In this document: piece by piece, positions 25,254-29,946 of the stretch
Layout: every line of letters begins with the position of its first letter
Numbering within the stretch: the first letter of the stretch is position 1
Source of the DNA: Chloroflexota bacterium
Lineage (GTDB): Bacteria; Chloroflexota; Anaerolineae; Anaerolineales; DRMV01
Reading direction: 5' to 3'
Length of the DNA stretch: 64,000 nucleotides
NCBI GenBank assembly: GCA_011322445.1
Contig: DRMV01000033.1
Coordinates: 6,671-70,670 of the forward strand
The notes under the pieces: model-generated
Told to the model about the DNA's origin: nothing
Database searches by the model: none
Seen by the model: the letters and a program-made list of their open reading frames with translations, nothing else
Program-made: the position numbers and the translations under genes

Positions 25254-26711
25254 ATGAACTTTCATCGTCGGAATGTCAAAATCGTCGCCACCGTCGGCCC
25301 CGCCAGCGAAGACGAGGCCACGCTGCGGGCACTCATCGCCGCGGGGGTGGATGTCGTGCGGCTCAACTTTTCCCACGGCACGCACGAACAACACGCCGCG
25401 GTGCTGCACCGTGTTCGGGAAATCAGCCACCGGCTGGGGAAAGCCGTAGCCGTTTTGCAAGACCTGCAAGGGCCCAAAATCCGCGTGGGGCAACTTCCCA
25501 CAGAGCCGCTCGCTCTGCACGCCGGTGAAACCGTCATCCTTTACCCTGAAAACGCCCCCCCGCCGGAGGAGGCCGACACCAAAGCCATTCCGGTTGATTT
25601 CCCCGATCTGCCGCGAGTCGCCCACCCCGGCGGCCGCATCTTGCTGGACGACGGGCACCTGGAACTGCACACCCTCACCGTAGAAAAACCGTGGGTGCGG
25701 GCAAAAGTGGTGCTGGGCGGCGAACTGCGTTCCCACAAAGGCATCAACTTCCCCGGCACACCGCTTGACATTCCCGGCTTCACCGCCAAAGACGAGCGCG
25801 ATCTGGCCTTTGGCCTGGAACAGGGCGTGGACGCGGTGGCGGTTTCCTTCGTGCGCAGCGCCGCCGACATTGCTCGGGTGCGCCAGGCCATCGCGCAAAT
25901 GGCGCCCGACCAAACCGACCTCCCCATCATCGCCAAACTGGAACGCCCCGAGGCCCTGCAAAACCTGCACGAAATCATCCACGCTGCCGACGGCGTGATG
26001 GTGGCCCGCGGCGACCTGGGCGTGGAACTCCCCCCCCAACGGGTACCCATCGCGCAAAAAGAAATCATCACGATGGCCAACCACCATGCCAAACTGGTCA
26101 TCACCGCTACCCAAATGCTGGATTCCATGATTCACGCGCCGCGCCCCACCCGCGCCGAAGCCTCAGATGTAGCCAACGCGGTGTTCGACGGCACCGACGC
26201 GGTCATGCTTTCCGGCGAAACGGCAGTGGGCGACTACCCGGTGGAAGCCGTCAAAATGATGGATGCCATCGTGCAGGAAGCCGAAGGGCACTTCACGCAA
26301 TGGGGGCACTTGGCCGAAATCGAAACCAGCGCAACCCGCGACGACGCCCGCTCCCTTACCCGCGCCGCCCGCGAACTGGCCCACGAGCGAGACGTGGCGG
26401 CCATTGCCGTCTTCACCCAAACCGGACGCACCGCGGTGCTCATGTCCAAAGCGCGCCCGCGGGTGCCCATCTTCGCTTTCACCCCTGAAGAATCGACTTA
26501 CCGCCGCCTGAGCATGTATTGGGGCGTCATTCCCCAACAGGTGCCCTTCGCCAACACGGTCGAGACCATGTTGCGGCACGTGGAAGCCGCCTTGCGGGCT
26601 ACAACGCCCATCGAGCCGGGGCAACAGGTTGTGGTCATCTCAGGGTTCCCCGTCGGCGCCATGCGACCGCCCAACTTCGCTTTGCTGCACACCGTCGGGG
26701 AAGCCGGGTAA
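25254..26711 (+). CDS. pyk: Pyruvate kinase
   Basis: KIVATVGPAS, RLNFSHG, DLQGPKIR, MVARGDLGVE, TATQMLDSM, MLSGETA. Confidence 0.97.
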   Translation: MNFHRRNVKIVATVGPASEDEATLRALIAAGVDVVRLNFSHGTHEQHAAVLHRVREISHRLGKAVAVLQDLQGPKIRVGQLPTEPLALHAGETVILYPENAPPPEEADTKAIPVDFPDLPRVAHPGGRILLDDGHLELHTLTVEKPWVRAKVVLGGELRSHKGINFPGTPLDIPGFTAKDERDLAFGLEQGVDAVAVSFVRSAADIARVRQAIAQMAPDQTDLPIIAKLERPEALQNLHEIIHAADGVMVARGDLGVELPPQRVPIAQKEIITMANHHAKLVITATQMLDSMIHAPRPTRAEASDVANAVFDGTDAVMLSGETAVGDYPVEAVKMMDAIVQEAEGHFTQWGHLAEIETSATRDDARSLTRAARELAHERDVAAIAVFTQTGRTAVLMSKARPRVPIFAFTPEESTYRRLSMYWGVIPQQVPFANTVETMLRHVEAALRATTPIEPGQQVVVISGFPVGAMRPPNFALLHTVGEAG

Positions 26712-26752
26712 ACGCCAGACCACGCCGGTTCTCAACACTCCCCTCTATACAA

Positions 26753-26779
26753 AAAGCCCGAGGAAGCACCTCGGGCTTT
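26753..26779. terminator. Bidirectional terminator
   Basis: AAAGCCCGAGG-AAGCA-CCTCGGGCTTT. Confidence 0.8.
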
Positions 26780-26816: not shown

Positions 26817-28835
26817 TTATGCAGCCTCTTCAGGTTGCACCAACCCCAGAATGCTGCTGCCGGGTTGCGGGTTCATGGCCGCGACGGCCTCCAGCACCAA
26901 CAGGCCCGCGGTGGTCACCGCGTTCTTGCCGACAAAGCCAGCCACGCGAGCAGCCTTGAGTGCATCGTCAAAGGCTTCCTTGCTCAGGCCACTGCGCTTC
27001 CAGGCTTCCTTGATGTTACGCGGCAGGATGCGCACTTTGCGTTCTTTGACGTAGAGGGTGCCTGCTTCCCGCAGAGCCTGCAACACCCGCACCATCACCG
27101 GCGTGATGGGGTTGCCAAAGCCCTCCGGCACGCCCGCGAGGGCCTCATCCAGCAGTTCGCCAGGGGCGGTTTCGACGATGTTGCCGTCGGGCAAAATTTC
27201 AATGAGATGCCGGGCTTCGAGTTTCTCCAGCGCCCAGCGAATGCGCTCCGTAGATTCGCCCCGCTTTTCCAGTTGCGCGTACACCTCGTCTTCGGTCACA
27301 CCGCGCGCGGGGATGGTGTGGAACACCTCCAGTTCAAAGCGGGTAAGCAACGGCTTGCGCTGCAGGGTTTCGGCCAGGCGGGCATACATCCAACCGCTGC
27401 GGGTCGGTTCAGCCGAGCCGATGAGATGGGCGTCATAGGCTTGCTGCCACCAATCTTTGGCTGGCGCGGAGAACATCTTGCGGGTCATGGTGATGGCTTT
27501 GACCGCGGTCGAAGGGATGTCCCGCGGGTTGTCGCCCTGCTCTTCCAGCACTGCGCGGCCAAAGTCGGTCAGGTGGAACACTTCGCGGCCGCGGGCATCT
27601 TCTTCGCTGGCCAGCAGGTCGAAAGATTCCAGGCTGTAAAGGGTCTCCCGCAGGGTGAAGTTGTCATCATACCAGCGTGCCAGATCTTTGGCCTCGGCAA
27701 ACTTCTGGGCAATGGTCTGATATTTGCGGGGCATCTCCTTGATGCGGCGGCCATATTTCTCCAGCAATTTGCGATATTCGGCGGCCTTGCGGTCAACCAT
27801 CTCACGGCGCAGGCGCTTGAACGTGGGAATTTCCTCTTCGTTGCCGGTTTCGTCATATTTCTTCCACAACGCGGCCAAGGTTTGGAGCACTTCCACTTCT
27901 TCGGCCTCGATGGCCAGTGTCCAGACGTCCTTCCGCGGGCCGCCGTGCCACAGACGGAACGCCTCCAGCGCCCATTCACCCGCCGGGAGCAGTTCACCTT
28001 CAGTGTCCAGGTAACCCAACGACTGCAAAAGAGCCAGCCCCTCCGAACCAACATCTTCCCCATCCACATGCTGGGCCAACAGCCAAAGCAAGTCGCCCGA
28101 AAGCACCGTGCCTTCGCCAAAGCCACCAGCCTGCAAGGCTCGCTTGACAGCCTGCCCCAACGCGGTGAAGGCCACCCCTTCAGAAACGGGCACGCTGTAA
28201 GCAATCAGGCGCATGGCTTCCAGCAGGTGCTCTTCGTGGGAACCCAAAGGCAGACGGCTGGCCGGGGCAGGCCCAATGGGCGCACTGCGGATGAAGTTGG
28301 CCAGTTGGTCGTCTACAATGAGGTGCGGACGGGCTTGATGGTAAATTTCCAACACAGTGCGCCCGGCTTCGCTGAGCACCACGTATTCCTTCTTCTTGGT
28401 CCGGTCCCAGATCCGCACGGCCAGGCCACGGCTCAAGAGGGCTTCTTCGGCCTTAGGGCCCACACGGTCAGCCCGAGCAGCAGCATCCAGCATCGCGATG
28501 ACTTCACTACCAATCCAGCGCCAATCTTCCGGCCAGTTTTCCGGGGTATCCAACCCACGGCCTTCGCGAATGACCCATTCGCCGCCCACCTCGGCTTCGT
28601 CTTCCGCGTAGGGCCTGGGGCCGCGCGCATACAGTTCGCGCAACACCCGGGCCAGGGCCGTCCCTGCATAGGTCAACACCCAACGCACCGGCGTCTGCTG
28701 GCGCACCAGGTCGGCGCGCGCCAGTTCCAGCAACACCGGGTCGTTCTCGCTCGCAAATTCGGTAAACGGTTTACGGTCGTCTTGATCTTGCAAAAGGCGC
28801 TTCAGCGCCAGGGCATGGGTTTTCCTGATGATCAT
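26817..28835 (-). CDS. DUF505-like protein with tandem winged-helix repeats
   Basis: 672 aa, GAGGAGG RBS, eight helix-G[LFY][VI]...T..G signatures; DUF505 assignment from recall, unverified. Confidence 0.75.
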   Translation of the reverse strand: MIIRKTHALALKRLLQDQDDRKPFTEFASENDPVLLELARADLVRQQTPVRWVLTYAGTALARVLRELYARGPRPYAEDEAEVGGEWVIREGRGLDTPENWPEDWRWIGSEVIAMLDAAARADRVGPKAEEALLSRGLAVRIWDRTKKKEYVVLSEAGRTVLEIYHQARPHLIVDDQLANFIRSAPIGPAPASRLPLGSHEEHLLEAMRLIAYSVPVSEGVAFTALGQAVKRALQAGGFGEGTVLSGDLLWLLAQHVDGEDVGSEGLALLQSLGYLDTEGELLPAGEWALEAFRLWHGGPRKDVWTLAIEAEEVEVLQTLAALWKKYDETGNEEEIPTFKRLRREMVDRKAAEYRKLLEKYGRRIKEMPRKYQTIAQKFAEAKDLARWYDDNFTLRETLYSLESFDLLASEEDARGREVFHLTDFGRAVLEEQGDNPRDIPSTAVKAITMTRKMFSAPAKDWWQQAYDAHLIGSAEPTRSGWMYARLAETLQRKPLLTRFELEVFHTIPARGVTEDEVYAQLEKRGESTERIRWALEKLEARHLIEILPDGNIVETAPGELLDEALAGVPEGFGNPITPVMVRVLQALREAGTLYVKERKVRILPRNIKEAWKRSGLSKEAFDDALKAARVAGFVGKNAVTTAGLLVLEAVAAMNPQPGSSILGLVQPEEAA

Positions 28836-28860
28836 GGCATACCTCCTCGAGAACCGCGGC

Positions 28861-29583
28861 TCAGTCTAAGGCCGCGAGCAGTTTTTCGATGCGCTCGGCA
28901 ATATCCACGTCAAACAAGTGGATAGTGGGCACAAGCCAGGTCACGATGTAGCGATCATCACCGTCTTTGTTTTTGCCAAAATACACCAGGGTGAAGCGGC
29001 CAACGTGCGTGCGCTTGCGAATCAAGTCGCCGGCCTCACGCAGCGCGCGGCGCATATGGCTGGGAAGCTGGTCAAAGTCGTAAGCCTTTCCCTGTTCGCC
29101 GCGCTTTTGGATGAACTCGGTGGTCAAACCGCTGGCGTGGAAGGCTTCCAGCAACTTGCCGAAGCCACGTTTCTTGAAGTAGGCCAGCAACAACTCGGCT
29201 GCAGGCAGGGTGAAGAGCAGAGTTTCTTCACCGTGGGCTGCCCGATAATACGCACGGATCACACCACGGCGCTCTTCCAGACCAACGCGCACCAACAAAC
29301 GCGCGCCTTTGGGCAACTGCTTCCAAACTTCCTGGACCTCAAAGGTCTCGCCCTGATCTTCGTAAACATCACCCACGCCGCGGCGATCTTCTTCCCGAGC
29401 CACAAACACGCTCTGGGCACCGCCGCGCAACCCGGAGAGCAAATCAAAACCCCAGGCTTTCAAACTGCGCAGTTTGACTTCGATCTCTGCGGGAATTTCA
29501 TCCCACGCTTCACGCACAAACGTGTTCAGCATGCGCTGATGACGCCGGCGCAGTTCCTCGGCGCTAAGTTTCTTTCGGCCCAT
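28861..29583 (-). CDS. Soluble hypothetical protein, first gene of the DUF505-like operon
   Basis: 240 aa, GAGGAGG RBS, globular composition, 25 bp from the next gene. Confidence 0.8.
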   Translation of the reverse strand: MGRKKLSAEELRRRHQRMLNTFVREAWDEIPAEIEVKLRSLKAWGFDLLSGLRGGAQSVFVAREEDRRGVGDVYEDQGETFEVQEVWKQLPKGARLLVRVGLEERRGVIRAYYRAAHGEETLLFTLPAAELLLAYFKKRGFGKLLEAFHASGLTTEFIQKRGEQGKAYDFDQLPSHMRRALREAGDLIRKRTHVGRFTLVYFGKNKDGDDRYIVTWLVPTIHLFDVDIAERIEKLLAALD

Positions 29584-29647
29584 CGGATTTCCTCCTCAAA
29601 TGTGCGAATTAAAGGTTTTGGAAAGGGGGACAAATAAAGATACCTGC

Positions 29648-29683: not shown

Positions 29684-29946
29684 GCGGGAAAAGGGTAGTT
29701 GCCGTCACGTCATGCCGGGGGCGTTTTCCGCCCACAGCATTTCCATTATGCTTGAGGAACGCAAGATTTTCGTTGGCAAAGCATTAGAAGCGTATTAACC
29801 CCCAATGCAGAAGAAGTGCCGTGCAGCAAAACGAAGGGCACAAAAGACAACACCCCACCTTCCTTCTTCGCACAGCATCCGCGAAAAGGTCCGTCCTTCT
29901 GCGATTGCCCCCTCTTGACCTGCCCCCTTTCAACCCACCAGACGCG

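Follow-up and report, generated by a model that had tools for sequence, protein, structure and literature searches.

A two-gene operon encoding DUF505 and UPF0128 proteins

The stretch of DNA analysed here (the window, 64,000 nucleotides of contig DRMV01000033.1) comes from a Chloroflexota bacterium of the order Anaerolineales, whose genome is labelled G000 (2.63 Mb, 2240 called genes). Named relatives at 72-96% identity agree with an Anaerolineales-type host. We examined an operon on its minus strand that encodes a DUF505 protein and a UPF0128 protein, and for which an earlier reading of the letters (the original prediction) had proposed a self-contained system for binding nucleic acids or acting as a scaffold. 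The operon has the following features, given in the direction of transcription.

29760..29799, minus strand: operator-like box of four 7-bp direct repeats with an 11-bp period (GTTAATA, TCTAATG, GCCAACG and TCTTGCG), common to the dnaK, clpB, hsp20 and usp promoters
29745..29750, minus strand: -10-like hexamer CATAAT, 9 nt past the fourth repeat, in the register seen at dnaK, clpB and hsp20 in the aligned sites
29591..29597, minus strand: GAGGAGG ribosome-binding site of UPF0128, from the sequence
28861..29583, minus strand: UPF0128/TIGR00703 protein, 240 amino acids, isoelectric point (pI) 9.3, from profile matches and a confident AlphaFold2 model
28842..28848, minus strand: GAGGAGG ribosome-binding site of DUF505, from the sequence
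26817..28835, minus strand: DUF505 (PF04458) protein, 672 amino acids, pI 5.4, eight winged-helix-like units, predicted to be one rigid body, from a profile match and an AlphaFold2 model
26751..26779, minus strand: intrinsic-terminator-like hairpin at the operon end with A/T runs on both flanks (z -5.5 on the minus strand, -4.7 on the plus strand)

Both open reading frames were found as predicted, with a 25 bp gap between them and GAGGAGG 6-7 nt ahead of each ATG. The shared terminator was also borne out, since the hairpin is followed by U-runs and none of 200 shuffled sequences was equally stable. It is placed between the operon and a convergent open reading frame (25254-26711) that we take, from its sequence features, to be pyruvate kinase. 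The hairpin was not among the hits of a simple terminator scan, and a sigma-70 scan found no promoter for the operon. A rough IVYWREL estimate over 456 filtered open reading frames puts the growth temperature of G000 at about 57 C.

A profile search matched the large protein to PF04458 over the full length of the model (positions 1-622 of 622, E 5.4e-212, 706 bits against a gathering cut-off of 28.7). This agrees with the earlier assignment to DUF505, a family that is catalogued without a described function, as had been stated. The smaller protein had been called an unknown partner. It is a member of UPF0128/TIGR00703, which is catalogued and uncharacterised (PF03673 over the whole model, E 2.8e-58, 197.5 bits against a cut-off of 21; TIGR00703, 185.9 against 155.4).

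The operon promoter carries a box common to chaperone genes

A Gibbs search of 19 upstream regions, three of them duplicates of others, aligned 17 regions on one motif with a score of 470, against 259-267 in 6 shuffles. The two unaligned regions represent one duplicated locus in which the box lies further upstream. We found that the box is kept upstream of Anaerolineales loci although the flanking genes differ. A first matrix was made from 14 sites of DUF505/UPF0128 promoters, with the operon's own site and duplicates removed, and run over the whole G000 genome. The seven best hits were all intergenic and lay ahead of the operon itself (32.9), usp (29.8), dnaK (27.6), hsp20 (23.8), clpB (22.5), an RND-adaptor-like gene (18.1) and a second hsp20 (16.6), with gene identities taken from Pfam/NCBIfam. 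Ten column-shuffled matrices peaked at 13.0-16.4, none exceeding 17, as against six real hits above 17.

A reciprocal matrix was made from 18 dnaK and clpB sites of other genomes, placed with the first matrix, and ranked the operon 5th of the 2240 genes. It scored all 14 Anaerolineales UPF0128 promoters at 17-35 and two more distant Anaerolineae-clade loci at 12-14. In other clades, none of 10 loci scored above 7.1. Among 13 dnaK genes of the boxed type (at least 70% identity), 11 are preceded by a box scoring at least 15, the exceptions being G410 (9.4) and G409 (-2.0); none of 10 dnaK paralogues (63-69% identity) has the box. A score of at least 18 was found ahead of five of the eight testable clpB genes, and the rest gave 9.7, 12.9 and -6.4. 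Taken as sequence evidence, this suggests that the operon very probably belongs to the dnaK/clpB/hsp20/usp regulon. The self-contained system of the original prediction is then not supported, since the operon has its box in common with these genes and elsewhere travels with a Csm5-like gene, proteases, Hsp20, DnaK/DnaJ or RtcB.

Eight box-bearing dnaK genes sit in Anaerolineales genomes that are DUF505-negative (8 of 8 such genomes with the boxed dnaK type, 92-100% complete). Because the box precedes dnaK in these relatives, we regard DUF505 as a target of the regulon and not its regulator. The 30 aligned sites have a common register, in which the 37-bp matrix is followed 12 nt later by a -10-like hexamer. 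The layout is that of OmpR/PhoB-type sites, namely 11-bp direct repeats overlapping the -35 position at a fixed distance to the -10, and the 11-bp period, the -35 overlap and the 9-10 nt to the -10 suggest that an activator of this type would bind the box. G000 encodes 12 OmpR-type DNA-binding domains. CIRCE was found in G000 at groEL and hrcA only, and no intergenic HAIR element was found in G000 within 2 mismatches; the operon lies outside the HrcA/CIRCE and HspR/HAIR regulons.

The sites of this Anaerolineales-wide regulon lie at approximately G000:C21:18125, C33:157547, C47:20250, C38:29494, C18:46212, C42:43933 and C33:169032, and in loci L128-L159. Its members are dnaK, clpB, two hsp20 genes, usp, the RND adaptor and a secreted 390-amino-acid protein. 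An OmpR-type regulator and a histidine kinase are encoded convergently with hrcA-grpE-dnaK2-dnaJ (L160:704-3088, G000:C48), and are a candidate regulator of the box. This pair has orthologues (67-73%) in four of the five order members tested and no box of its own. At 29700-29715 of the window, on the minus strand of the long operon leader, ATGACGTGACGGCA is found; it is kept in L001, L037 and L038, is duplicated in L001, and is a candidate second operator or leader motif. Among the upstream regions L179-L182, the clpB promoters of genus g74 and of G337 have repeated CACTCAAT-like words in common, which may mark a heat-shock operator of another kind there.

The two genes are linked and have crossed phyla together

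Of 78 near-complete DUF505 loci, 61 remained below 97% identity, a sample biased to close relatives of the query. UPF0128 adjoins DUF505 in 32 of these 61 non-redundant loci, is absent in 25 and was not assignable in 4. In family f1 (22 relatives), 11 genomes have DUF505; all 11 also have UPF0128, and the genes are adjacent in 10 and on different contigs in G414. In one further relative (62% complete) a piece of UPF0128 is present where a contig breaks off, and 10 are without both. Neither gene was found in 38 genomes from other families of the same order. A 401-genome sample of the phylum contained 10 other genomes with DUF505 above the cut-off and no UPF0128 match, and Thermotoga maritima has DUF505 only. 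The predicted linkage of the two genes is therefore real, and the description of UPF0128 as a dedicated partner does not hold, given the 25 loci without it and the 10 other Chloroflexota genomes.

The main clades are common to the DUF505 and UPF0128 trees. In each tree the copy from L003, a Desulfurellales (Campylobacterota) genome, falls within the Anaerolineales copies, as do those of three low-GC metagenome loci. Holding the Anaerolineales rows together was rejected (p-AU 0.002, in a quick tree of 21 rows with the group chosen after seeing the tree). Because both genes nest together across phyla in both trees, the sequences indicate that the pair crossed phyla together and moves as a unit. 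DUF505 nevertheless appears often to work without UPF0128.

DUF505 is predicted to be a rigid, acidic array of winged-helix-like units

All eight motifs on which the claim of repeated winged helices was based were found in the 672-residue sequence. A regular expression written post hoc matched seven of the eight, against at most two in 10,000 shuffles. Leave-one-out profiles recovered units R2, R7 and R8 well (0.02, 0.003 and 0.03 of 300 shuffles reach the score); recovery was weak for R1, R3 and R5, and R4 and R6 were missed entirely. Since so few units are recovered, the repeats are highly diverged. Profile-profile probabilities between units were mostly low, the best being 89 for R2/R5. Three parts of the protein stand out in the model, in structural matches or in conservation.

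27657..27821, minus strand: helical insert within unit 5, at residues about 339-393, basic with a net charge of +8, with conserved Y354, Y361 and G362, from the AlphaFold2 model and conservation
27120..27359, minus strand: unit 7, residues 493-572, the unit that superposes best on MarR/PadR winged helices (Z 10.2-10.5)
26856..27119, minus strand: unit 8, which carries an additional basic hairpin that is conserved (G592, K597, E598, R602 and P605), from the AlphaFold2 model and conservation

The AlphaFold2 model (pLDDT 91.4, pTM 0.89, from an 82-sequence alignment) has a helix-hairpin-helix unit at all eight motif places, although the wings of R4, R6 and R8 are very short. The high pTM of the model indicates that DUF505 is one rigid body. 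With VIA, residues 493-574 superpose on MarR/PadR winged helices (Z 10.2-10.5, root-mean-square deviation 1.6-2.6 A, 70-78 residues), and unit 7 has the three-helix core and C-terminal beta-hairpin wing of a winged helix. Some VIA rows extend into about 390-650, and the N-terminal repeats are barely covered by structural matches. The proposal of eight winged helices was right in that a winged-helix-like pattern is present at all eight places; the seven units other than unit 7 are matched mainly by their secondary-structure pattern. The charged helical insert is also real, but it sits inside unit 5, between the first helix and the recognition helix, and not between repeats 4 and 5 as had been placed.

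Each of 43 diverse DUF505 sequences, chosen to be under 70% identical, carries a net negative charge, from -9 to -36 with a median of -21. In the recognition helices D/E exceed K/R on average in six of the eight units and are about even in two. Invariant positions are mostly structural (G/L/P/A), and conserved basic patches are confined to the unit-5 insert and the unit-8 hairpin, the latter being a candidate binding surface. Conserved residues on the surface include H7, R106, E206, Y354, Y361, K446, E540, D550, K597, E598 and R602. DUF505 is without the basic recognition helix plus wing of DNA-binding winged-helix regulators and nucleoid proteins.

As had been expected, profile and structure searches found no confident match of DUF505 to a characterised enzyme. 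Foldseek gave no significant match and no global fold match for the model, the ESM Atlas returned its own family only, and sequence searches found no relative with a solved structure. DUF505 was not found in plasmid, phage or viral collections and so is not a mobile-element gene in those collections, and PADLOC anti-phage defence profiles gave no family for DUF505 or UPF0128 at E 0.1. Named hosts of DUF505 are mostly thermophiles; homologues also occur in soil Ktedonobacteraceae/Dictyobacter records. The gene is split into two open reading frames in G042 (L036:5957-7847) and at L093:6001-7932, and at L046:4810-5247 its 3' end is tandemly duplicated with the next gene.

UPF0128 is a small basic family without a clear structural relative

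The AlphaFold2 model of UPF0128 is confident (pLDDT 95.7), and VIA gave it no clear structural relative, the best row reaching Z 5.6. Residues about 127-240 resemble small ferredoxin-like or PCD-like alpha/beta sandwiches at background level (Z 4.3-5.6), and residues 32-128 gave weak VIA matches to beta-meanders. Foldseek found no match at E 0.001 or better and returned weak PUR/Whirly rows, no RAMP was among the best 50 VIA rows, and the ESM Atlas returned nothing. The family is basic (median pI 9.2) and small: clustering at 50% leaves 37 representatives, Thermococcus and Asgard records among them. Across 23 diverse members it conserves only G195-R196 and F202-G203, as compared with the full C-terminal G-rich loop of RAMPs. 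We take COG1851 to be the same family as UPF0128. Passages of two papers class COG1851 as a RAMP not linked to CRISPR (PMC1462988; PMC3150331).

DUF505 has other stress-related and RNA-related neighbours

We found DUF505 between dnaK and dnaJ in G337 and divergent from Hsp20 in L083, L086 and L095. In genus g74 it has an FtsH-phosphoesterase-Hsp20 operon on one side and RtcB-archease on the other. Among metagenome loci an SDH ClpP-like protease is near DUF505 in 14 and a rhomboid in 14. A gene of about 240 codons for a Csm5-like (Cas7-group) protein adjoins DUF505 in 22 of the 61 loci, is absent in 31 and was not assignable in 8; the label rests on weak matches (Csm5, E 0.02; Cas7_IIIh, E 0.006). 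One member of family f1, G409, has DUF505, UPF0128 and the Csm5-like gene, and a profile search found no Csm5-like gene in G000. A ParB-like gene is near DUF505 in four loci.

Three further observations concern these neighbours. In the 22 loci the Csm5-like gene stands alone directly after DUF505, for example at L051:8506-9234, L071:7932-8654, L084:4933-5619 and in L100, and no cas genes were seen in these loci. Between DUF505 and the Csm5-like gene, 17 high-GC loci encode a 164-amino-acid protein (L051:8009-8500) with no Pfam family and apparently two winged-helix-like halves. The rhomboid and SDH ClpP-like protease pair that flanks DUF505 elsewhere is present in G000 apart from the operon (L097:6998-8554, G000:C12).

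Discussion

We consider it an even chance that the operon encodes a stress-induced protein-binding scaffold or adaptor of protein quality control, in which the basic UPF0128 would take part optionally. In view of the chaperone box and of the stress genes near DUF505, an accessory of protein quality control is the most likely role, and the scaffold mechanism is a weaker step than membership of the regulon. Heat or damage to proteins likely induces the operon together with the chaperones, the stimulus presumably being proteotoxic. DUF505, as the rigid acidic array of eight winged helices seen in the model, would likely act as a protein-binding scaffold or a holdase-type adaptor. By analogy with ESCRT-II, PCI or RPC62-type scaffolds its winged helices may bind protein surfaces, and UPF0128 likely docks on it where present. 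A protein-binding scaffold fits better than a DNA wrapper because the protein is net acidic, its recognition helices are acidic and its invariant positions are mostly structural. Of the ideas offered earlier, the ESCRT-II/TFIIE-like scaffold is plausible in kind, and DNA wrapping or protection is disfavoured.

Several observations weigh against a role in protein quality control or its link to the chaperone regulon. The box is absent at all scanned DUF505 loci outside Anaerolineae. In the g74/g190 lineage no motif common to DUF505 and chaperone promoters was found (Gibbs 117 against 106-113), and the promoters of g74, G337 and G287 had no box or common motif. With the box absent there and no motif in its place, regulon membership is shown for a single class. 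The first matrix was trained on sites from related genomes and was itself used to place the reciprocal sites. With usp, an efflux adaptor and unknown secreted proteins also in the regulon, it may respond to envelope stress or to general stress. Neither DUF505 nor UPF0128 has a fold match to a chaperone; the type III chaperone-like matches of UPF0128 are weak and at background level (Z 4.3-4.8). Many DUF505 loci have only unrelated neighbours, and the rhomboid/SDH pair of G000 is without the box. The Csm5-like gene and the RtcB of g74 point to RNA. The one expression result found lends the stress reading weak support: Table S2 of PMC3407056 gives the UPF0128 gene of T. gammatolerans, TGAM_0505, as up 2.1-2.4-fold in 1 mM cadmium. 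This induction is unspecific, since about 114 genes are in the table and many encode hydrogenase subunits.

The main rival is a role with RNA or ribosomes, suggested by the Csm5-like gene and RtcB, which we judge about half as likely as the scaffold reading. In this alternative the operon is a stress-induced unit for handling RNA or ribosomes, in which DUF505 would use its basic insert and the hairpin of unit 8 to bind damaged RNA or ribosomes, with UPF0128 and the Csm5-like protein as interchangeable RNA-binding partners tied to RtcB repair. It is compatible with the heat-shock box. It draws on the weakly matched Csm5-like gene after DUF505, also in G409, on the adjoining RtcB and archease of g74, on the basic charge and weak PUR/Whirly rows of UPF0128, on a weak S19e match on units 6-7 (E 3e-6, far below the cut-off), and on a passage calling COG1851 a non-CRISPR RAMP (PMC1462988). 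However, G000 is without the Csm5-like gene, DUF505 is strongly acidic overall, UPF0128 does not keep the full G-rich loop, and the RtcB linkage is limited to one genus and convergent in orientation. It is improbable that the two are independent stress genes that have a promoter in common and move together with no physical complex, as the 25 loci with no adjoining UPF0128, the separate contigs of G414 (each gene with its own box) and Thermotoga maritima might suggest. Against it stand the presence of UPF0128 in 11 of 11 DUF505-positive f1 relatives, 10 of them with the genes adjacent, the 10 family members without both, the co-transfer across phyla with main clades common to both trees, and the complementary charges of an acidic DUF505 and a basic UPF0128.

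The leading idea of the original prediction, that DUF505 is an architectural protein of thermophiles that wraps or protects DNA with UPF0128 as its helper, is in our view similarly improbable. Eight winged-helix-like units, best structural matches to DNA-binding MarR/PadR domains, mostly thermophilic named hosts and the ParB-like gene near four loci would be consistent with it. The uniformly negative charge and acidic recognition helices argue against it, as do a rigid compact model (pTM 0.89) that is not beads on a string, co-regulation with chaperones and not with replication or repair genes, and the soil homologues. DUF505 could also itself be a transcription factor that reads the 11-bp repeats, an autoregulated heat-shock regulator, since it is a protein of many winged helices and the strongest boxes are in its own promoter. 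We rejected autoregulation because the box precedes dnaK in DUF505-negative genomes, and the box is also missing where DUF505 occurs outside Anaerolineae; with 12 OmpR-type domains available in G000, this explanation is very improbable.

If the scaffold reading is extended, the operon may represent an undescribed branch of quality control, a tentative picture that we think more doubtful than the scaffold itself. DUF505 would be the core scaffold, with UPF0128, the CRISPR-free Csm5-like protein, gamma-prefoldin and membrane proteases as exchangeable partners, and in bacteria and archaea of hot vents it would link chaperones with damaged proteins or with stalled ribosomes. In Anaerolineales, dnaK and clpB would be controlled by a new two-component heat-shock regulon in place of HspR/CtsR/sigma-32.

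Whole-word literature searches, whose coverage leaves out most subscription journals, found no paper for DUF505, TIGR00703, COG1542 or UPF0128; apparent DUF505 matches, where examined, were to DUF5059 and were discarded. Searches with the same coverage for a direct-repeat regulon at Chloroflexi dnaK/clpB found nothing relevant, and the main text of PMC10746257, on P. furiosus heat shock, does not name either family. The families themselves are already catalogued, and the new, testable part is the regulatory link of the operon to the chaperone box. Two thermophile families that have long been catalogued thereby gain a first functional handle open to testing: chaperone-type stress as the stimulus, a set of co-regulated genes and a few partners. 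A second outcome is the direct-repeat regulon itself, which covers dnaK, clpB and hsp20 throughout Anaerolineales and of which our literature searches returned no published description. Should the scaffold reading be true, arrays of winged helices would have a part in protein quality control in prokaryotes; such a role is known otherwise from complexes of eukaryotes.

Activation geometry of the OmpR/PhoB type is known from direct-repeat regulons such as the Pho box and the mycobacterial MprAB control of acr2. The box resembles these in its 7-bp units, 11-bp period, -35 overlap and spacing of about 10 nt to the -10, and differs in having four units, the consensus TCTWAY and dnaK, clpB, hsp20, usp and the operon as its targets in Anaerolineales. 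In this setting HrcA/CIRCE covers only groEL and hrcA. Unit 7 of DUF505 superposes on MarR/PadR regulators at Z about 10; unlike them, DUF505 is without the dimerisation helices of small regulators, has acidic recognition helices and carries eight units per chain. Tandem winged helices are binding platforms in ESCRT-II, RPC62, TFIIH p52, the SelB C-terminus and UFL1. RPC62, TFIIH subunits, SelB and UFL1 are among the Foldseek rows for DUF505, all of them non-significant (E 0.15 or worse, TM below 0.13). DUF505 differs from these scaffolds in that its eight units appear to be fused into one rigid acidic body.

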